DNA from: an uncultured Thermodesulfobacteriota bacterium
GTDB lineage: Bacteria; Desulfobacterota; WTBG01; CAIYCZ01; CAIRTM01
DNA: 64,000 nucleotides
Assembly: GCA_964518865.1 (NCBI GenBank)
Contig: CAZFIB010000012.1
Span: forward strand, 2,736 to 66,735
Direction of reading: 5' to 3'
This document shows, piece after piece, positions 7,831 through 21,007 of this stretch. The translations under genes were made by a program, and so were the position numbers. The notes under the pieces were generated by a model. It did no database searches. It had not been told where the DNA came from and saw only the letters and a list, made by a program, of their open reading frames with translations. Numbering within the stretch: position 1 is the first letter of the stretch; every line of letters begins with the position of its first letter.

Positions 7831-8748
7831 CTAGCGGCCGTGTTTTATCCTGCTCAGCACGGCCGCCATGCCCGGCGGCAGCAGCGCCTTCAGGAAGAAA
7901 ACGATTCCCCGCAGGGTGGGGGAATGCCGCAGCGAGGCCGCGATGCTGCGGCGGGCACGCCGGTGGTCCCCGGCCGAATAATAGTTGATACCCCACACCA
8001 GATGGTGATCCGCGAAAAGCATCTTTTCATGCGGCCGGTAGATATCGGGCTGTCGTTCCAGGGCCCGCTCGATAACGCGAAAATGTGCAGCGCGCTTTGT
8101 CTCGAGAGCGGTGGTGTCGGAAAGACTGCCGCTTCTAAGGTGGATGACGACCAGGCGCTCCGGCACCTCGCGAACGTCGGCGTGCTCGGCCATGCGTATC
8201 CAGAGATCCTGATCTTCCCATGCGGCAAGCGATTCGTCAAACCCTCCCGCCTGCTCAAGAACCGCCCGGCGGCAGGTGGTGGCGGGCGTGAACTGAAACG
8301 GGCTCGGCCACAGGATGCGCGGGAAAGCTCTGTGCCGTTCATACTCCTCGTTAAGCCGTACCCGGGTTCCGTCCGGACGCTGCCCGATCGACAGACAATA
8401 GGTCATGCCGGCACCATGATCGTCGATCATCGGGTCCACTCCTGAAGACAGCCTGCCGGCCAGCCACTCGTCGTCAGCATCCAGAAAGGCGATATGCTCA
8501 CCCGTGCTTGCCGCTATGCCTGCATTCCGGGCGGCCGCCGCTCCGGCATGCTCCCGGCGCACAAGGCGGACGGCAGAACCGAAGGCCCGGACAGCCTCAG
8601 CGGTCCGGTCTTCCGAGCCGTCATCGACAACGATTATTTCCCGGGCGGCATAGTCCTGCGCAAGTACAGAGCGCAGAGCCCGTCCGATACAGGCACAGCT
8701 GTTGTAGGCGGGAATGACGACTGAAACAAGCGGATTCCGTCCCGTCAT
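7831..8748 (-). CDS. Glycosyltransferase family 2
   Basis: VSVVIPAYN, VVDDGS, AARNAG, FLDADD, EDQDLW. Start MTGRNP at 8748 gives an ATGA overlap with the upstream gene. Confidence 0.92.
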   Translation of the reverse strand: MTGRNPLVSVVIPAYNSCACIGRALRSVLAQDYAAREIIVVDDGSEDRTAEAVRAFGSAVRLVRREHAGAAAARNAGIAASTGEHIAFLDADDEWLAGRLSSGVDPMIDDHGAGMTYCLSIGQRPDGTRVRLNEEYERHRAFPRILWPSPFQFTPATTCRRAVLEQAGGFDESLAAWEDQDLWIRMAEHADVREVPERLVVIHLRSGSLSDTTALETKRAAHFRVIERALERQPDIYRPHEKMLFADHHLVWGINYYSAGDHRRARRSIAASLRHSPTLRGIVFFLKALLPPGMAAVLSRIKHGR

Positions 8749-9728
8749 ATTTTTTCGAACACCTTTTGTTTGAAAACCTGTTCGAGCCTGCCGAACCACG
8801 GCACGTGCCTGCTCAGGGCGGCATAGGCGCGCGGTCCGATCATCTGCCTGAGCCGGTAACGCAAATGGGTAAAGGATATGAGCAGCAGCGGGCAGCGCCG
8901 CCAGGCCTGCCGCCAGCACTGACGGGCCTCGCGGTGCTTTCCCGATTCCCGGAGGCGCATGCCTTCGGTCATCAGCTGAGTCGCATACATCAGGTGCATC
9001 GGCAGCAGTATGCGCCATGCTGCAATGCCGCCTCTTTCCTTCCAGTAGCGTCGGGTTATGAGCATGCCCTCCTCGACAAAGGGTTGCCAGCCCCGGGAGG
9101 TTTTGGCCTGCCGGTGCAGCCGGTACGCTGCAAGCGCTTCATCCAGGTAATAAAAACGCACCGTCTCAGACAGCCTGAGCCAGAAGTCGTAGTCCATCAT
9201 GTAATGCAGGTCCGGATCAAAGGGGCCGAACCGCTCCCGGAGCTCTTTTTTAAAAAAGCTGCCCGGCTGGCCGAAGCCGGCCCCGCCCTCCCGCCACCAC
9301 CGGAAAAAGGAGCGGGGGTCATAGGAGGCCCGCTTTGTCTCCACGACAGTGCCGTGCCCGTCGACAAACGTGCAGTTGCTGAACACGAACTGCGCCTCGG
9401 GACAGTTCCCGGCGAAGGCGGCCAGCTTGTTCAGCGCTTCCGGAAACAGATAGTCATCGGCATTGATCCAGGCGATCCACTCGCCCTCAGCCATGCCGAT
9501 TCCCTTGTTGAGCGCATCGGACTGCCCGCGGTCCGGCTCGCTGATCCAGCGCAGGTGACTGTAGTTTTGTATTATATCGAGCGTTTCATCGGTTGATCCC
9601 CCGTCAACGATAATGTGCTCGATATCGTTACGACCCTGTCCGAGAACGCTTTCAATCGTGCTGCGGATAAAGCAACCCTGATTAAGAGACGGGGTAACGA
9701 CGCTTATGAAGGGATTGTCTGAACTCAT
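8745..9728 (-). CDS. Glycosyltransferase family 2 (WcaE-like)
   Basis: ISVVTPSLNQ, DGGSTD, EPDRGQSDALNKG, INADD, MDYDFWLR. Start at 9728. Confidence 0.92.
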   Translation of the reverse strand: MSSDNPFISVVTPSLNQGCFIRSTIESVLGQGRNDIEHIIVDGGSTDETLDIIQNYSHLRWISEPDRGQSDALNKGIGMAEGEWIAWINADDYLFPEALNKLAAFAGNCPEAQFVFSNCTFVDGHGTVVETKRASYDPRSFFRWWREGGAGFGQPGSFFKKELRERFGPFDPDLHYMMDYDFWLRLSETVRFYYLDEALAAYRLHRQAKTSRGWQPFVEEGMLITRRYWKERGGIAAWRILLPMHLMYATQLMTEGMRLRESGKHREARQCWRQAWRRCPLLLISFTHLRYRLRQMIGPRAYAALSRHVPWFGRLEQVFKQKVFEKI

Positions 9729-10984
9729 GTCAGTACCGTTTCGCACAGCCTGAGATAATCATCGACCATGCGCTCCAGGCGATACGATGCGCGGACTTTT
9801 TCAGCACCGGCGGCCCCCGCCCGCCGCCTCTCGTCCTGATGACCGTACAGGCGCCTGAGGGCCCGTACAATCGCGCCCGCATCACCCGGTCCGGTCAGGA
9901 ATCCTGTTCGTCCGTGCTCGATCTGCTCGGAAACCCCGCCCACAGCAGTGCCGACTACCGGCACCCCGCAGGCCATGGCTTCCAGCACGGACACGGGGAA
10001 GTTATCGGCTTTGGTTGCGTGAACGAACACGTCGGCGCAGTTGTACACGGCCGCCATATCTTCAGGGGAGGGTACTCTGCCGAGAGACACGATACCCGTA
10101 TCTTCGCGGTCAGCCTCCGGGTCGCCGGCTGCCAGAACACAGCAGGAGGGGACCGCCTGTTTAAGCAGCCGTGCAGCTGCAGCGAATGTCGCATAATCCT
10201 TGAACGGATTCCTTTTACCGAGGTTTGCACTGAAAAGCACCGTGAACGCACTGTGCGATATGCCGAGTCTGCTGCGCGCGTTCCTGCGCTGATGGTCGGT
10301 AAAAGGTGTAAACACGGCCGTATCGATACCATACGGGATATGATGTACGGGAAGATCACCGGCAATGCTTTTCTGAACACATCCCGTAAGCCATTGCGAC
10401 GGGCATACAAGGTGAAGCCGGTCCGGAAGCAGCCTGCTGATGCGCCGGTACTGGTGCCTGCGCCGCCACAGGTTCAGCCTGCTCAGGTCATAGCGCAGGG
10501 GTACATACACGTCCGGGTACGGACAGTTTCCGCAGCCGCGCTGCCAGCGCAGGCAGTCAAAAGAATAGGCGCAGTGGCCGGTGAAGGCCCACATGTCGTG
10601 CAGCGTCCATATGAGCGGCGCGTGCCGGCACAGGCGGTACAGGTCCTCGATCCGCATGAGATCGGCCCGCATCGTATGTGACAGTACGATGTCGGGCCGG
10701 AACGGCAATTCATCGAACAGGTGTCGTGAGGAGCCGCCGGCACACTGCTCGAGACCCAGCGCCTCGAGTTTACAGAGAAGGTAGTGAATAACCTTGTCCG
10801 GAAGAGGTGCGTCGCCCGCCTCGCAGGGTGTTGCTGAAACCGCTGCACAGCCGCCTGCATCCTTGCCGGCGCGCACCCTGGTGTGAGAGCCGTGACCGCT
10901 TTTCAACAGCTCGCCGGCAAGCAGCATCGCCATGCCTTCGGCACCGCCGCCGTAATGCTCTGATGTGAGTGTAAGTATGTTCAT
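9725..10984 (-). CDS. Glycosyltransferase family 4 (WcaC-like)
   Basis: GGAE, WTLHDMWAFTGHC, DNFPVSVLEAMACG. Start MNIL at 10984. Confidence 0.92.
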   Translation of the reverse strand: MNILTLTSEHYGGGAEGMAMLLAGELLKSGHGSHTRVRAGKDAGGCAAVSATPCEAGDAPLPDKVIHYLLCKLEALGLEQCAGGSSRHLFDELPFRPDIVLSHTMRADLMRIEDLYRLCRHAPLIWTLHDMWAFTGHCAYSFDCLRWQRGCGNCPYPDVYVPLRYDLSRLNLWRRRHQYRRISRLLPDRLHLVCPSQWLTGCVQKSIAGDLPVHHIPYGIDTAVFTPFTDHQRRNARSRLGISHSAFTVLFSANLGKRNPFKDYATFAAAARLLKQAVPSCCVLAAGDPEADREDTGIVSLGRVPSPEDMAAVYNCADVFVHATKADNFPVSVLEAMACGVPVVGTAVGGVSEQIEHGRTGFLTGPGDAGAIVRALRRLYGHQDERRRAGAAGAEKVRASYRLERMVDDYLRLCETVLT

Positions 10985-11204
10985 GGCACGAGTCGGGCGG
11001 TTGGAAAAGTCCTGCGGCGCCTGCTTGCAGCGGTGGTGTGCTGCAGGCTGCCGCCGACAGTCCGCTAGTAGCGTATCAAAGTGATTCGTCAAAAGCAAAA
11101 CAAAGTTGTGCGGAGCGTATGCCCGGCCGATTGAAACACCTTTTGCTTTTCAGGGGCTGAGCAGCTACAATGTTCTTACGCTGCAAACCCTCAGGAGCCG
11201 ATCC

Positions 11205-13301
11205 GTGCAGTACGCACCTGTTTGTCTTTTTGTCTACAACCGGCCGGAGCATATCCGCCGCGTGACCGAGGCGCTCGGGCGGAACCTGCTGGCCGCTCAG
11301 ACCGACGTGCGGATTTATGCCGATGCCGCGGAAGGAAGGGACAGCCGGGTCGAGGCCGTCCGTGAGCATGTGCGATCCCTGGAGGGCTTCAAATCGACAA
11401 CCGTTATAGAGCGCGAAACCCACTTCGGGCTGGCGCGCTCGATCTTAAGCGGCGTAACCGAAACACTTGCTGCTGCCGGCCGGGTGATCGTGCTGGAAGA
11501 CGACCTGGTGACAGCACCATACTTTCTGAGCTTCATGAACAGGGCGCTTGACTATTATGAGCAGCATGATGAAATATTTTCCGTCAGCGGGTACAGTCAT
11601 CCGCCGCACACCCTGCCGATCCCTTCTGCGTACCGGCACGACGTGTACCTGAACTACCGGCCGTCGTCATGGGGCTGGGCGACCTGGGCCGACCGCTGGG
11701 AACGAATCGACTGGGACGTGTCGGACTATGAGCAGTTCTGTAACAGCAGTGCTCTGCAGGCGCGCTTCAACCGCGGCGGAGATGACCTCACTCCCATGCT
11801 GAAAGACCAGATGGACGGCAGGATCGATTCCTGGGCGATCCGCTTCTGCTATGCACATTACAGGCACAATGCCTACAGCGTCTGCCCGGTGCGCTCCTAC
11901 ATCAACAATATCGGCTTTGATGATACAGGCACGCACCCGAGCCCGCCGTTCAGCTGCGAAAACGACCTCGATGCATGCCGTGAAGCCGTAACCTTTCCCG
12001 ACAGCCTCGAGATCGACCGCGAAATAGCCGACAGGTTCAGGGATATGTACCGCAGGAAACCCGCTTCAGCAGGACGCACCGGCATCCTGCATAAAGTAAA
12101 AAAACTGTTCTCCTCGGTGTCGAAAGCAGGGCGGAGCTTCATGGTGCTGCTGGGCCTTGTGCTGCTGTGCTCTTCGTGCACCTCAGCCGGGCAGCCATTG
12201 AAAAAAAACGGCTATCTCATTATCGTTCCGACTGCGGTTTCGGCAGCGCTAGAGGACTTTGCCGCCTTCAAGGAATCGCAGGGGTTCCTCGTGCAGACCG
12301 CCCTTCTGGAAGAAATCCTTGCCGCATCCGAGGGTACGGATGATCCTGAAAAAATAAGAAACTATTTGATCCGATATTCATCCCGCGTGCCTGAAGCGCG
12401 CTATGTCCTGCTGGTCGGCTCGCCGTCCGGCATGCCGATGCGTTTTTCATATCCCGACCCCGACAACCACGGGCATTCGGTCCCGACCGACTTCTATTAC
12501 GAAGACCTGTCCGGCAGCTGGGATGCCGACGGTGACGGGTACTGCGGTGAGTACGGCGACGACCTGAGCCCCGGCACACATGACTACCGGGCCGCGCTTC
12601 TCACCGGGCGCATCCCCTGGGACGGGTACGATGAAATAAAGGCTGTCTGCGATTCAAGTATCTCCTACCAGCAGGACACATCGCCCCGCATGCAGAAGGC
12701 GCTCGGGGCCGGTGAAGACCTCGGGTTCGGCGAGGCCTGTGACGGCCCCCTGATCATGCATATGGTGAAAAAAATGGCTCTTGACCCCGGCGGATTTGAT
12801 ACCACCGTATTATACAGCGACTGCCCGATGGTGGCAGGTGACTTCGAGCTCAGCGCCGGTGCCTTTGTGGAACAATGGGAGCGGATCCAGCCCGGATTTG
12901 TGGTGTGGGTATCACACGGGGCCCCGGAGGGCACGACGTTTATCGATATTGAGAACTACCCGCAGGGTGCGGCACCCGCAATCGCGGTTTCGGCATCCTG
13001 CTCGGTTGCCAGCCCGGACGAGCTCAGCCTTGCCCGCGTGCTCATTCGCGACGGCTCCTGCGCAGCTTTCCTGGGTGCCTCGCGCTGGGACTACTTCGAC
13101 CCTTTTCCCGTGCTGGCAGCCGGATGCCGGGCGGCGACAGAGCTTCTCCGGCGGGGACGGTCGCTCGCGGAAGCAAAAGCCGAATTTATCAAGCGCTACG
13201 CGCGAAAACCTTCGTCGATCGAAGGCTGGCAGTACCACCAGAACATGTTCCTGTTCATGCTGTACGGGGACCCCTCCATTACCGTTTCCACCGGCGCCTG
13301 A
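11205..13301 (+). CDS. Fusion of a GT2-like sugar transferase, a hydrophobic segment and a peptidase C25 (gingipain-like) domain
   Basis: N-terminal APVCLFVYNRPEH, VIVLEDD, WGWATWADRW. C-terminal YLIIVP, YVLLVG, PTDFYY, GRIP, SHG, ASC, LYGDP. GTG start at 11205 after AGGAG. Confidence 0.8.
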   Translation: MQYAPVCLFVYNRPEHIRRVTEALGRNLLAAQTDVRIYADAAEGRDSRVEAVREHVRSLEGFKSTTVIERETHFGLARSILSGVTETLAAAGRVIVLEDDLVTAPYFLSFMNRALDYYEQHDEIFSVSGYSHPPHTLPIPSAYRHDVYLNYRPSSWGWATWADRWERIDWDVSDYEQFCNSSALQARFNRGGDDLTPMLKDQMDGRIDSWAIRFCYAHYRHNAYSVCPVRSYINNIGFDDTGTHPSPPFSCENDLDACREAVTFPDSLEIDREIADRFRDMYRRKPASAGRTGILHKVKKLFSSVSKAGRSFMVLLGLVLLCSSCTSAGQPLKKNGYLIIVPTAVSAALEDFAAFKESQGFLVQTALLEEILAASEGTDDPEKIRNYLIRYSSRVPEARYVLLVGSPSGMPMRFSYPDPDNHGHSVPTDFYYEDLSGSWDADGDGYCGEYGDDLSPGTHDYRAALLTGRIPWDGYDEIKAVCDSSISYQQDTSPRMQKALGAGEDLGFGEACDGPLIMHMVKKMALDPGGFDTTVLYSDCPMVAGDFELSAGAFVEQWERIQPGFVVWVSHGAPEGTTFIDIENYPQGAAPAIAVSASCSVASPDELSLARVLIRDGSCAAFLGASRWDYFDPFPVLAAGCRAATELLRRGRSLAEAKAEFIKRYARKPSSIEGWQYHQNMFLFMLYGDPSITVSTGA

Positions 13302-13318
13302 GCTGTTTTACAACGTGT

Positions 13319-14374
13319 TTATTGGCTTCCTGTGCTGCCTATATACCCCCGAACCGTCTCCTCGAAGTGTGAAAAAAAACCTTCCGGGCTCAGCCAGGTC
13401 TCCCACACGCGTCGGCAGGTGCGCTGCACGTCTTCAAACGAACCAGGGGTCAGGTTCGCGTGAAATGCCGCGACATGGTCAGCCGCATGCGATATGTTTT
13501 TTTCATCCACCCACACGCAGATGTCACGCCAGGGTATCCGGTCTTCAAACGGCAGCACGCAGTCCGTGTCGACAAACACGGGAATTCTGCCCAGTGACAG
13601 GGTTTCATACAAACGATAGGAAAAGTTGCCCCCGCCCCGGGCGCACAGCACATAGTCGGCGTCAAGCATATTGTGCACGTACTCCCGCCGCCTGGCCTGC
13701 GCAGCGCGCGCATCCAGCCTGCCGTCCACAAGCGCCCCGCCCCAGAACCCCTCGCGTATGACGAACCTGCAGGCAACCGCAGTGCTTTTTTTCAGCGCGC
13801 CGAGAGCCCTGGATCTGACTGCCATGCCCGGATGCCCGCCGGTATCGATGCCCAGCGCCTTTTTTATGTTCCGCTTGAGCGCCGGCATCCCTGCCTGCAG
13901 GCCGTAGCCGCAGTAGCTTACCGCCGGAACGGTCTGCAGCTGCCGCAATTGCAGGCTGCCCTGACAGTAGCACTGCAGGAAATCCTCCGACCAGCACGGC
14001 AGGGCAAATTCATTCGGCTTTCTGCAGGAGCGATACAGGGAGGTGCGAAATACCACGGAGCCGGGTATGCTCAGGTTTTCGTCGGAGTCGCTGTTGAAAA
14101 AAACGATGAGCGGCTTGCCGGCATCACGCGCCGCTTCCGCGGAGGCTCCGGCATCCTGCCGGCCGGGCTGCCACTCACACGGATACACGACCACGTCGGC
14201 ATCCTCAAGGGATGTCAACTGAAAGAACTGCCTTCCCCGTCCGGCATAGCGCTCAAAGCGGCCGGCGGTGGGCAGCGCCGGGTCTTCATCTGGCAGCCCC
14301 CAGAACGGAATGAGCATATGAACATGGCTGCGATCCGCAGGCAGGCACGTACGGTCAGAAAATATTTTGAGCAT
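13319..14374 (-). CDS. Exostosin-family (GT47-like) glycosyltransferase
   Basis: YVLCARGGGNFSYRLYETLSLGRIPV, LPFEDRIPW. Confidence 0.85.
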   Translation of the reverse strand: MLKIFSDRTCLPADRSHVHMLIPFWGLPDEDPALPTAGRFERYAGRGRQFFQLTSLEDADVVVYPCEWQPGRQDAGASAEAARDAGKPLIVFFNSDSDENLSIPGSVVFRTSLYRSCRKPNEFALPCWSEDFLQCYCQGSLQLRQLQTVPAVSYCGYGLQAGMPALKRNIKKALGIDTGGHPGMAVRSRALGALKKSTAVACRFVIREGFWGGALVDGRLDARAAQARRREYVHNMLDADYVLCARGGGNFSYRLYETLSLGRIPVFVDTDCVLPFEDRIPWRDICVWVDEKNISHAADHVAAFHANLTPGSFEDVQRTCRRVWETWLSPEGFFSHFEETVRGYIGSTGSQ

Positions 14375-17344: not shown

Positions 17345-18673
17345 CTATTTATAGGTCGCCCTCACCGGGTCGTGCATCATTGATTCGCCCGAGGAATCGA
17401 TATCCTCGAGCCTGTACCAGTTCGTCCACCACCGTGCGGACTCATCCACGAACTCATACGCCGCCCCGCCGGTCGGTGAGCCCCTGGCGGGAATAAGGGC
17501 TTCATTGACACGCACATAACGGCCGCGCTGAAAGGCGCAGCGGTATATGTTGAAACCGGCGCTGTCGACCTCCGAAGCCGTTGTCCAGCTGATTGCAACG
17601 TGCTTAAACCCGCGGCGCTCGGCAGACAGTGATGAGAGCTCTACGAGGGTAGATGATCCTGCACCGCGGACCGCCCGCACATAGTGCAGAGCGCTTTTAC
17701 CGCTGCCGAAGTAAAAATCCACATACCCGAGATCGAAGTCGACAACCCAGGCCCTGTCGGTATAGCCCCCGGGGATGCTGGTTGATGTGCGGTAGGATGC
17801 GGCTACGGCTGCAGGAAAAAAATCGGTGTCGATGCTTGGTCCGTATCTCGTGTAATCGACAAGGGACTGCAGCTCGTTGACATTGGGAAGGCGCCAGTCG
17901 CTGTAACCGGCAAGTTCCAGGTTCTCGCAGTAGGCGAGGGCTTCCTGCCAGTCCATGGTCTGCGCAGGCCCTGCCTGCTGCCACATAAGCCCGGTGCCCT
18001 GATCACTGACTGTTCCGTCGCCGTTATCGACAAACATACCGCGTTGTGCGATATCACCGCGCACCGCCATGGCGCCGTCACCGTCTTTAATAAAATTGTA
18101 CTCATAGCCTGTGAAAAACTGCACATAATAAGGGCCCAGCGCTGCTGACGGGTCCGGGGTCGCGGTCCAGTAGTAAAGTGCAACGAGGGGGAAATAATCG
18201 GTATCGACTGCCGGGTCGATGGTGCCGCGGTCGATCAGGTATGACAGCTCGTGAATTTCCGGGAGGCGCCAGTCGCTACAGCCGCCGAACGCGGCCTGGT
18301 TGAGCGCAGGAATAAAAATATCCCGGGCATCATTCCAGCTGTAACTGTTTTCGAAATCGTGGATCGAGCCGTCATCGGTCTTGACTTCCCAGGTCAGGCC
18401 CGTAACCGTGTCGCGGACCATGGCCCAGGATTCCGCAGTATCGGGAAGCGGCAGGCCGCTGCCGTCCAGCTTTATATATTCACGGCTGCCGGTGTCATAC
18501 TGGGCATCCTGACCGTAGAAGGGCTCCCCGGGTGCAGGGCATGCGATTTCCGCAGTATTGTCGTAACAGGCTGTCTGTCCTGTGTCGGGCACGTGACCGC
18601 CTAAAGCCGGCTGGCAGGTAAAAAGCAGCACTACGTGCAAAAAAATACCTGATATTGCAACATATTTATTCAT
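17345..18673 (-). CDS. Secreted DUF1566 (Lcl C-terminal-like) protein with a C-terminal Ig/Fn3-like module
   Basis: Signal peptide, PDTGQTACY, two blocks ending DWRLP, C-terminal TLVELSSLSA..WTTASEVDSAGFNIYR. Start MNKY at 18673. Confidence 0.85.
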   Translation of the reverse strand: MNKYVAISGIFLHVVLLFTCQPALGGHVPDTGQTACYDNTAEIACPAPGEPFYGQDAQYDTGSREYIKLDGSGLPLPDTAESWAMVRDTVTGLTWEVKTDDGSIHDFENSYSWNDARDIFIPALNQAAFGGCSDWRLPEIHELSYLIDRGTIDPAVDTDYFPLVALYYWTATPDPSAALGPYYVQFFTGYEYNFIKDGDGAMAVRGDIAQRGMFVDNGDGTVSDQGTGLMWQQAGPAQTMDWQEALAYCENLELAGYSDWRLPNVNELQSLVDYTRYGPSIDTDFFPAAVAASYRTSTSIPGGYTDRAWVVDFDLGYVDFYFGSGKSALHYVRAVRGAGSSTLVELSSLSAERRGFKHVAISWTTASEVDSAGFNIYRCAFQRGRYVRVNEALIPARGSPTGGAAYEFVDESARWWTNWYRLEDIDSSGESMMHDPVRATYK

Positions 18674-18813
18674 TTTATCTTTACCTTGAGAAAGGTGACC
18701 ATGTTTTTCACTCATAATTATTATAGTACGTGCTGATTCCGGGCTCGTCAATGAACAAAACAAACAATTAGTATTTATTGCTTTTTCCGTCATGCTTTTC
18801 GGTGTGGAGCATA

Positions 18814-18850
18814 GAAAAAGCACCCGTCCTGCCAGGACGGGTGCTTTTCT
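18814..18850. terminator. Rho-independent terminator (bidirectional type)
   Basis: aaaaagcacccgtcct-gcc-aggacgggtgcttttct downstream of the 18881 gene. Confidence 0.8.
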
Positions 18851-18880
18851 GCTGCGTTCGAAACTGTTCAGCTGTCAGCC

Positions 18881-21007
18881 TCAGTCAATCGCCTTTGCGA
18901 TTCCTGAAAGCAGTTTTGCGGCGGTCCAGCGCAGAAAGGGGCTTTCCTCCAGCATTCCGCGCAGGTGCGGGCTTGCACGGTAGTAGGCTTTAATCAGGAT
19001 TCTCCCGAACCGAATCCGGGACAGCTTTTCATCGCGGAAGCGGCGGAACGTTTCAACTTCCTCCTCAGAGAGAACAAGCGCGAACGGGCAGGCGGAGGCC
19101 TCGTGAACCGTTACCTCGATTGTGCCGGTGCCTGTCAGGCCACCGCTGTCTATGACTTCCAGTGTTGCCGTGTACAGGTCCGCACTCTCAAAACGATGAA
19201 ACGATATCGGGTCGCCGTCAAATGATGTGTCCCACGAACCGTCGCTTTCAAAGTCCCATCTGAACTCGAGGCTTTCGATCGGATCTTCAGGATCGGAAGA
19301 GTCAAACGCCATGAACTCGAATTCGGTCTGGGTGTCACCCTCCGGCGGATGCACCAGAGCGACAGCTGTCGGCGGATTGTTTGTGCCGCCTGCAGGTGCT
19401 GTAGTCGTTGTCGTAGTGGTGCTGCCGGAAACTGTTGTCGTAGTGCTGCTGCCCGCTGCGGCACTGACCACCACCTGCTGGTCGGTCTGGTCGGTCAAGC
19501 CGCCCTGGTCGATAACTTCCAGGGTGACCGTATAGGTGCCGGCAGCGGTATAGTTCCACGTTTCGGTTTTAGTCGTTGAAAAGCCCGTATCCCACATGCC
19601 GTCACCGTCAAAGTCCCAGATGACCTTCAGTGCCGACACCGCATCCTCGGCATCCGTGCAGCCTGAGGCATCAAAAGAAAACATAGTTGTCGTATCACCG
19701 GAAGACGGGCTTACGGTGAACACGGCCGTCGGGTTCGTGTTGCCGGTGGTCGGTGAGACGACAATTACCTGCTGGGATGCCTGGTCGGTAAGCCCTCCGG
19801 TATCCTCAACTTCGATGGTTATCGTATAGGTGCCGTCCCCCGTGTACTGATGATCGATATCCTTGTCGGCCGTGATCTGGTCGTCCCAGGCACCGTCGGT
19901 TTCCCAGTCGATACGTACGATCAGCGCGGCGATCGGATCTTCGGCATCAGCGCTTGCAAACGGCTCGAGGTGAAAGGTCTGCGACGTGTCACCCGCTGGC
20001 GGTGTTACGGTAAAGGCGGCTGACGGTGCAGTATTGGCGGCAGCGGACGTTGTTGTCGAGGACGCGGCTGTTGTGGTTGTGGTGCTCGCCGCCACACCGT
20101 CATAGCGCAGCAGCGTACCGCTTGTTCCACCGGCGAACACATTGCTTGACGATGTTCCCCAGACGCTGAACAGCCCGAAATAGGTGCCGCTGGTCATTGT
20201 CGACCATGAGGTGCCGTCGTAATGTAGAATCGTGCCCTGATCGCCGACCGCAAAAACATCGTTAGACGCCGTGCCCCACACATCTCTGAGGGTGTTGGTT
20301 GTGGGATTGGTCATGACGCTCCAGCCGGTGCCGTCATAGTGAACGATGTCGCCGCCGACCGCGAAGATATCTGTTGCCGATGAGCCCCACACAGCTTCAA
20401 GAAAACTGGTTGTAGGGCTGGTCATTGCCGACCACGAGGTGCCGTTATAATGAAGAATCGTACCGGAATCCCCAACCGCATATACGTCGTTAGCCCCTGT
20501 GCCCCACACCCCGTAAATCGTATCCGTGCTGCCGCTCGTCATGGCACTCCAGCTCGATCCAATGCTGTGAACGATCTCACCGCTGTAGCCGACGGCAAAA
20601 ATATCACTCGCGGATGAGCCCCACACATCGATCATCCAGCTGTTGATACCGCTCGAAGTTGCGGTCCAGCCGGTGCCGTCGTAGTGCGAAACGCTGCCCG
20701 AGCTTCCGAGCCCGCCCCCTGCGATATAGATATCCGAAGCAGATGAGCCCCAGATGCCCCTGAGGGTACTGGCCCCTGCAATACCGCTTACCGACACGGA
20801 CCAGGCCGATCCGTTGTAGTGCAGAACACCGCCGCCCCCGGAAGAGTCATCAAGGGTGGCGTGGATGTCAGATGCAGAGCTGCCCCAGATGCTTTGAATG
20901 GAGTAAGACGTTCCTGAGCTCACAGCGCTCCACCCGGCAAAAGCTTGGGTCGATGTTACGACCGCAACTAAAATACACGTTGTAAAAACCAGTTGTAAAT
21001 GCCTCAT
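18881..21007 (-). CDS. Secreted beta-propeller repeat protein with 3 PKD domains and a CFI-box-CTERM-like tail
   Basis: Seven WG(S/T) repeats, Thr-rich linkers, WDFDGDG/WDFESDG PKD motifs, tail CPFAL..FRRFRD..GRILIKAYYRASP. Confidence 0.85.
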   Translation of the reverse strand: MRHLQLVFTTCILVAVVTSTQAFAGWSAVSSGTSYSIQSIWGSSASDIHATLDDSSGGGGVLHYNGSAWSVSVSGIAGASTLRGIWGSSASDIYIAGGGLGSSGSVSHYDGTGWTATSSGINSWMIDVWGSSASDIFAVGYSGEIVHSIGSSWSAMTSGSTDTIYGVWGTGANDVYAVGDSGTILHYNGTSWSAMTSPTTSFLEAVWGSSATDIFAVGGDIVHYDGTGWSVMTNPTTNTLRDVWGTASNDVFAVGDQGTILHYDGTSWSTMTSGTYFGLFSVWGTSSSNVFAGGTSGTLLRYDGVAASTTTTTAASSTTTSAAANTAPSAAFTVTPPAGDTSQTFHLEPFASADAEDPIAALIVRIDWETDGAWDDQITADKDIDHQYTGDGTYTITIEVEDTGGLTDQASQQVIVVSPTTGNTNPTAVFTVSPSSGDTTTMFSFDASGCTDAEDAVSALKVIWDFDGDGMWDTGFSTTKTETWNYTAAGTYTVTLEVIDQGGLTDQTDQQVVVSAAAGSSTTTTVSGSTTTTTTTAPAGGTNNPPTAVALVHPPEGDTQTEFEFMAFDSSDPEDPIESLEFRWDFESDGSWDTSFDGDPISFHRFESADLYTATLEVIDSGGLTGTGTIEVTVHEASACPFALVLSEEEVETFRRFRDEKLSRIRFGRILIKAYYRASPHLRGMLEESPFLRWTAAKLLSGIAKAID

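Follow-up and report, generated by a model that had tools for sequence, protein, structure and literature searches.

Architecture of the fused gene

The window analysed here is the whole stretch of 64,000 nucleotides taken from contig CAZFIB010000012.1 (positions 2,736 to 66,735, forward strand; assembly GCA_964518865.1) of an uncultured Thermodesulfobacteriota bacterium. Within a cluster of glycosyltransferase-type genes it contains one open reading frame (ORF) at 11205..13301 (+), in which a GT-A fold glycosyltransferase is continued by a gingipain-type C25 cysteine peptidase. We consider it probable, though well short of certain, that this gene arose by a lineage-specific, one-off in-frame merger of two genes which are complete and separate everywhere else.

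The frame is open on the plus strand from a TTG at 11106 to the stop codon at 13299-13301; read from the GTG at 11205 it comprises 698 codons plus stop without any internal stop. GTG 11205 is taken as the start, because the orthologue in a genome of the same genus (G001) begins at the equivalent residue (MTPSPVLIFVYNRP vs. MQYAPVCLFVYNRP) and a Shine-Dalgarno (SD)-like AGGAG motif (11193..11197, +) sits 7 nucleotides upstream, with a duplex energy of -6.6 kcal/mol computed with a generic anti-SD sequence. From the N to the C terminus, the GT-A glycosyltransferase leads through a basic linker and one single hydrophobic segment to the C25 domain with its His/Cys pair. The same order, including the SHG and ASC motifs, had been proposed in an earlier sequence-only reading of this DNA, and it was confirmed by the 698-codon frame, the Pfam C25 match and the predicted GT-A fold.

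Reality of the junction DNA

The draft genome consists of 202 contigs with a depth of ~10x or less, and a run of seven A (12098..12104, +) sits in the linker. Hence, the continuous frame could in principle result from a sequencing or assembly error, i.e. from a homopolymer of wrong length, a stop codon that was miscalled or a chimeric join. We give this explanation only a very slight probability. The independent assembly of run X1 by a second assembler yielded one contig which spans 11000-13400 and is identical over these 2.4 kb (zero differences). A contig of 184 bases, which comes from X2, another sample of the same study, spans 11983-12166, again with zero differences, and takes in the 7-A run as well as an ATG at 12141 discussed below; X2 and X3 hold both halves of the gene. 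Furthermore, a one-base change in the A run yields no nearby stop, since the other frames run on for 79 and 31 codons, and a chimera would require two false joins, because the DNA on either side of the C25 part is like that of the organism's own family. The support is good, although it consists of contigs at low depth from one study. An artefact is unlikely, and the merger is taken to be real DNA. As its alternative, the sequence-only reading had named the merger of two genes through loss of a stop: the merger is favoured here, whereas an artefact at this place finds no support in the contigs that reproduce the junction.

The glycosyltransferase half

The N-terminal domain (11205..12053, +; residues 1-283) is predicted to be a GT-A fold glycosyltransferase of the GnT-I/GT2-like type, based on an AlphaFold2 model, Foldseek searches (5ggf, 1fo8) and the same-genus homologue. 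In Pfam, the N-terminal 300 residues miss the cut-offs of Glycos_transf_2 (PF00535; 19.9 bits vs. 23.3) and GNT-I (PF03071; 14.3 bits vs. 25.4); many homologues of this half bear precomputed matches to PF03071 or PF00535. The AlphaFold2 model, calculated with a 41-sequence alignment, reached a mean predicted local distance difference test (pLDDT) score of 94.1 and a predicted template modelling score of 0.91. Its nearest solved structures are POMGNT1 and GnT-I (E 5e-12 to 4e-11), and GnT-II, KfiA and SpsA, which likewise have the GT-A fold, were also among the best matches. Residues E98-D99-D100 (11496..11504, +) form a DxD-type metal/nucleotide-sugar motif, in which D99 and D100 are invariant and E98 is nearly invariant among the 41 sequences. 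The domain thus shares fold and EDD motif with GnT-I/POMGNT1-like (GT13) and GT2 enzymes, but it is just 12-17% identical to the solved GT13/GT2-type structures and falls below both profile cut-offs.

The half belongs to a bacterial family of stand-alone glycosyltransferases of ~300 amino acids, with an orthologue in the corresponding cluster of the same-genus genome. Such relatives number thousands (6,973 matches at E <= 1e-10 with the whole protein as query). The stand-alone members end 10-30 residues beyond the last conserved motif with a tail that is non-conserved and often basic. Other fusions occur in this family, namely to GT4, FkbM methyltransferase, hexapeptide transferase or TPR domains. 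All of these partners are cytoplasmic, whereas the window's member is joined to an exported peptidase.

The peptidase half

The C-terminal domain (12207..13298, +; residues 335-698) was recognized as a gingipain-type C25 cysteine peptidase by Pfam, AlphaFold2 and Foldseek. It matches Peptidase_C25 (PF01364, clan CD) over residues 337-693 with an E value of 1.2e-31 and 110.8 bits (cut-off 23), covering profile positions 1-373 of 374. The AlphaFold2 model of this half has a mean pLDDT of 83.8, and its nearest structures are the catalytic domains of gingipains, with RgpB (1cvr) at E 1.1e-16 and a template modelling score of 0.71 and Kgp at E 4e-14. The predicted catalytic residues are His571 in the SHG motif (codon 12915..12917, +) and Cys599 in the SASC motif (codon 12999..13001, +), both of which are invariant in two family alignments of 15 and 17 sequences. 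In PorU, the aligned counterparts of SHG and SASC are the GHG and TATC motifs, with Cys599 falling on the Cys of TATCDF in PorU chain 6za2_A (index ~688 of the deposited chain). PMC5562754 describes PorU C690 as catalytic residue and counts the sortase PorU in the C25 family. Judged by its profile match, its His/Cys pair and its predicted gingipain-like fold of two subdomains, the domain is a member of peptidase family C25.

Compared with the gingipain catalytic domains (RgpB 1cvr/4ief; Kgp 4rbm/6i9a; MEROPS C25), the full-length Pfam C25 match, the predicted fold and the His/Cys pair are shared. In contrast, the identity in structural alignments is just 13-16%, and Pfam finds neither a Propeptide_C25 match nor an Ig-like domain nor a C-terminal domain of a type IX secretion system (T9SS) in the window's protein. 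The peptidase instead follows a lipoprotein-type signal, has a conserved WDADGDG...GEYGDD insert and comes from Thermodesulfobacteriota, not Bacteroidota. The conserved acidic insert WDADGDGYCGEYGDD (12519-12563) is present throughout the subfamily; its W, D, D, G and E are invariant and it looks like a calcium-binding loop.

The sequence-only reading had drawn an analogy to PorU, the T9SS sortase. This analogy turned out to be weak. Peptidase family and aligned GHG and Cys motifs are common to both (NF033707; PDB 6za2), but the PorU model NF033707 of NCBIfam reaches just 21.4 bits against a cut-off of 420, over only 75 residues of the fused protein, the window's peptidase has 386 residues compared to ~1100-1160, and its predicted fold most resembles that of the gingipain catalytic domain. 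By this profile, it does not count as a PorU-type T9SS sortase. Searches with the T9SS C-terminal domain (PF18962) and SprA_N (PF14349) matched nothing in the genome that carries the window (100% complete by markers), and they were likewise silent in all 14 control genomes. Two large C25 proteins of 956 and 840 amino acids are encoded elsewhere in the same genome at G000:C9:64194-66320 (-) (L087) and G000:C109:890-2980 (-) (L088). These are far more PorU-like, with 283 and 249 bits over model positions 7-736, which is still below 420, and one of them has a Propeptide_C25 match.

The closest relatives of the peptidase half are stand-alone, lipoprotein-like C25 proteins of ~400 amino acids (e.g. 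P0122, P0023; L012-L017), which are 42-54% identical across the whole mature domain and have signal peptide and Cys at the same position. These relatives consist of 384-443 residues with this domain alone and occur in uncultured Thermodesulfobacteriota and unclassified genomes. They differ from the window's peptidase in that they have their own Met start, unrelated neighbours and no adjacent glycosyltransferase. To our knowledge, none of them has been studied.

More distant relatives with 26-32% identity are found in Thermoplasmatota genomes, one of which (L056) stems from a genome of a study on sediment archaea (Thermoprofundales/MBG-D; PMC6461988). In that study, the archaeal C25 genes are regarded as coding for extracellular peptidases, and their expression was observed; these enzymes are archaeal, not lipoprotein-type and not linked to glycan clusters. 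Because the predicted fold is nearest to RgpB and Kgp and the archaeal relatives are read as extracellular protein-degrading enzymes, the window's peptidase is most likely a surface or periplasmic endopeptidase which degrades protein, and not a sortase.

The linker and the former signal peptide

Both domains are connected by a basic linker (12054..12137, +; residues 284-311) with eight K/R and no D/E, followed by the hydrophobic segment FMVLLGLVLLCSSC (12138..12179, +; residues 312-325), to which Cys325 (12177-12179) belongs. No other part of the protein is as strongly hydrophobic as these residues (Kyte-Doolittle 2.29 over 15 residues), and they are flanked by the eight K/R on the N-terminal side compared to two in the 15 residues after. 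The linker is as long as the non-conserved basic tails on the stand-alone GT-A relatives. Because of this equal length, each half is judged to be essentially complete, and the halves appear to abut exactly where a stop and a start codon would be.

The window's MVLLGLVLLCSSC aligns exactly with the signal peptide and Cys of the stand-alone C25 relatives. In thirteen of 14 such homologues, the N terminus consists of a short charged part followed by a hydrophobic core and [S/A]-C, with the Cys in the Cys325 column; the remaining one was called from an internal Met. The best match, P0122, reads ...LLLLLLLLGDVTAC. Because of this alignment, the hydrophobic segment is read as a former signal peptide. 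The alignment indicates that what had been described as a membrane segment in the sequence-only reading is the lipoprotein-type signal peptide of the peptidase itself, which is now found 312 residues into a longer protein; the word lipoprotein is taken from the sequence pattern. The signal is internal in the window's protein unless translation begins at 12117 or 12141. At the latter position GGAG, 4 nucleotides and ATG (12133..12143, +) form a possible internal start of a separate peptidase, whose predicted SD pairing is as strong (-6.6 kcal/mol) as that at GTG 11205. Both this element and the 7-A run had been pointed out before and are present.

Programmed frameshifting or slippage at A_AAA_AAA (12098-12104) was considered and rejected: the -1 frame continues for 79 codons and the +1 frame for 31 codons to a stop, unlike the tails of the relatives. 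A search for repeats that could mark an insertion returned only short matches at chance level. An exact 11-nucleotide direct repeat, TGAAAAAAAAC, occurs at 12199-12209, just past the part coding for the signal peptide, and at 13370-13380, ~70 nucleotides beyond the stop. As an insertion mark it was dismissed, since it fails to bracket the homologous unit, the signal peptide being outside.

Search for the fusion in other sequences

Full-length relatives were searched for with two protein search methods and in metagenome contigs. Among the best 120 of 236 matches (E <= 0.001) of a word-indexed protein search, none covers more than 59% of the query. An exhaustive HMMER search of 1.84 billion representatives matched 14,070 proteins, and every one of the best 150 matches one half only. 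Three HMMER matches with several matched stretches proved to be tandem GT-A proteins with no C25 match. In a scan of metagenome contigs, all 27 loci match solely within residues 1-330; the one match reaching residue 330 comes from a protein that stops at about residue 309 of its own numbering, after its own tail, and is no fused relative. The window's own protein is absent from the results of both protein searches. Moreover, we found no report on a fusion of a C25 peptidase and a glycosyltransferase in the literature.

The domain arrangement is new, joining two known kinds of protein, and has been seen once. A search for homologues across the junction had been proposed as a check by the sequence-only reading, which regarded relatives that encode two separate genes as evidence against its idea of a linked enzyme. 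This is what was found.

Closest genomes and the origin of the peptidase gene

Among 41 related genomes, both halves co-occur only in the window's genome. In the same-genus genome G001, the transferase is a separate gene of 308 codons that ends in a stop, and its product is 57-60% identical by different alignments. The upstream genes are collinear with G001, namely those for a PMT_2 protein (48% identity), two GT2 proteins (49% for the first and 54% for the second) and a GT4 protein (50%), followed by the GT-A transferase half itself (60%). Collinearity ceases right after the transferase, and beyond this point G001 has no match to the C25 part, the GT47-like gene or the BioA-like gene of the window.

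The distribution of the peptidase is patchy. C25 matches at E <= 1e-20 were found in six of 301 genomes across the phylum, i.e. in the window's own genome (G000) and five others, which all belong to one other family (f50). None of the six own-family genomes in this search was matched, and with the whole protein as query the C25 half matched in 0 of 16 own-family genomes. The sequence on either side of the C25 part is like that of the organism's own family: upstream there is the synteny with G001, and downstream the BioA-like gene product is 59% identical to that of G007, a genome of the same family, compared to 35% for G121 of f50. Because of the patchy C25 distribution between flanks of own-family type, the peptidase gene seems to have been acquired horizontally into the cluster. 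The closest genomic C25 homologue, with 51% identity, is L092 (G328:C114:7245-8441, -), which has one in-frame TGA inside the match.

The neighbourhoods of the C25 relatives point to no association with this transferase. The GT-A was absent from 75 loci of C25 relatives searched up to 7 kb on each side (tblastn, E <= 1e-5), and also from seven loci of f50 C25 genes with ~1.5 kb of flank, most of which duplicate loci of the larger set. The neighbours of the five closest C25 relatives encode a major facilitator superfamily (MFS) transporter, a DAGK-like protein, a tryptophan synthase, an ABC-2 permease, a TPR protein, a CAAX protease and a trypsin-PDZ protease; these five neighbourhoods are mutually unrelated and contain no glycosyltransferase.

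Interpretation

The favoured reading, a one-off in-frame merger, would proceed from two separate genes. The first would be the conserved cytoplasmic GT-A glycosyltransferase of this polysaccharide cluster, and the second a gingipain-type C25 cysteine peptidase, whose relatives are stand-alone exported proteins of ~400 residues with a lipoprotein-type signal peptide. The horizontally acquired C25 lipoprotein gene would have integrated precisely at the transferase gene's 3' end, with the intervening stop gone. Because no stop follows the transferase, every ribosome making it is expected to run on into the peptidase and to produce the 698-residue protein. The old signal peptide would then serve as an internal signal-anchor. 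Since eight K/R precede the hydrophobic segment and only two follow, an N-in/C-out insertion is predicted, with the transferase and the K/R-rich side in the cytoplasm and the peptidase outside the inner membrane. This orientation would keep the transferase on the same side as the nucleotide sugars and place the peptidase on the outer side, on which its relatives act. Lipoprotein processing by Lgt/Lsp at Cys325 may separate the two parts again, and some peptidase may be made alone from ATG 12141. The two activities would be mechanistically independent of each other. The likeliest task of the peptidase is to break down extracellular or periplasmic protein, a role already proposed for the C25 enzymes found in sediment microbes. 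Both halves look intact, given their high model scores and the retained family-invariant residues.

Several observations weigh against this reading. The G+C content is even across the region, and the acquisition is therefore not obviously recent. Furthermore, the lipobox of the window, L-C-S-S-C, is non-canonical, and the hydrophobic region with just 14 residues is short for a stable membrane helix. The starts that could make the signal N-terminal again have their own difficulties. An equally good SD-like motif precedes 7.3% of the 521 internal in-frame ATG/GTG codons in the window, so that the one at ATG 12141 may be due to chance, and initiation there would give a signal peptide without charged n-region. 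Initiation at the in-frame GTG 12117 would give a good signal peptide (MSKAGRSF...), yet no SD-like motif precedes it (+1.5 kcal/mol). Regarding the DNA itself, the window may derive from run X1, and X2, with a depth of ~3.5, belongs to the same study, hence the read support is not fully independent. Finally, with a single instance, selection for or against the fused state is not measurable.

Some of these points could also be understood as signs of a nascent pseudogene or harmful accident, in which a recent stop loss damages one or both functions, for example by trapping the peptidase in the cytoplasm or mis-targeting the transferase, and the locus decays. The architecture is a singleton across all searches and lies at a synteny breakpoint, and the short hydrophobic core and non-canonical lipobox would fit as well. 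However, 698 codons without stop or frameshift, the retention of every family-invariant residue in both halves and the even composition do not look like decay, and the transferase half is more conserved towards G001 (60%) than its neighbours (48-54%). We regard such a decaying locus as unlikely.

The sequence-only reading had preferred a membrane-spanning enzyme that links glycan synthesis inside to protein cleavage or transpeptidation outside. In such a selected bitopic enzyme, the outer C25 domain would cleave surface proteins or transpeptidate them in a PorU-like manner onto the cluster's glycan, which the inner GT-A domain would help to make. The topology with transferase inside and peptidase outside is coherent, and this part of the claim remains plausible. 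The two intact halves, the position of the gene within 8-9 glycosyltransferase-type genes and next to genes for secreted PKD and Lcl_C proteins, and the inclusion of the sortase PorU in the C25 family (PMC5562754) also speak for it. The coupling itself is not supported, because all relatives found encode the parts separately and usually as non-neighbours, i.e. neither a fused relative nor conserved adjacency was found in the searches. Moreover, the same-genus cluster works without any C25 protein, the PorU model stays at 21.4 bits against 420, the fold is nearest to the RgpB and Kgp catalytic domains, and the other fusion partners of this GT-A family are cytoplasmic. The missing matches to the T9SS C-terminal domain and SprA_N count little, as the control genomes are silent too. 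Hence, functional coupling appears quite improbable.

A related proposal is that the fusion has been kept by selection, either as a self-resolving two-compartment polyprotein or as a PorU-like, T9SS-independent transpeptidase attaching secreted proteins to the glycan of the cluster. In the polyprotein variant, the internal lipoprotein signal would first be inserted, and the Lgt/Lsp cut at Cys325 would then yield, in a 1:1 ratio, a glycosyltransferase that stays tethered to the membrane on the inside and a peptidase that is set free outside with a lipid anchor. We rate this proposal as very improbable. Altogether, the idea that glycan synthesis and protein cleavage are functionally linked has no support.

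Provided that the fused protein is produced and takes up the predicted orientation in the membrane, the merger of the two genes would be a natural test of whether a lipoprotein signal peptide works and is processed 310 residues inside a protein, and of how a fresh gene merger across the membrane comes to be tolerated. It also draws attention to the unstudied gingipain-like lipoproteins of ~400 residues without prodomain in uncultured Thermodesulfobacteriota. As an argument that glycan synthesis and protein processing are linked in a new way, the fusion is weak, and it should be regarded as an accident of one genome until a second independent instance is found.

Surroundings of the fused gene

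The neighbourhood comprises eight genes with a significant Pfam match of glycosyltransferase type and one with a weak DUF6056 match, in agreement with the earlier estimate of about nine such genes. According to Pfam, the cluster contains PMT_2, two GT4, three GT2, a GT47-like gene, the fused gene and the weak DUF6056 match. The GT47/exostosin-like gene (13319-14374, -) converges on the fused ORF, with 17 nucleotides between the two stops. It has no match in three related genomes (G001, G007, G121) and is part of the non-syntenic portion of the cluster. The longest ORFs of two adjacent GT2 genes (7831-9018, - and 8745-9746, -) share ~270 nucleotides; in the first of them the Pfam domain begins at residue 99, and the true start is probably well downstream of the first ATG. 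Just past the glycan cluster (17345-21007, -) lie genes whose products, a protein bearing two Lcl_C domains and a PKD-repeat protein, are probably secreted.

A promoter and terminator scan of 10900-13500 returned two promoter-like and two terminator-like sites, which is not above shuffled sequences, and none of them lies at the junction. The G+C content over the junction region varies between 0.55 and 0.63 with no step at the junction and a dip to 0.545 at 12000-12399. Four A-runs of 7-8 bases occur within 2.4 kb of this DNA of ~60% G+C.

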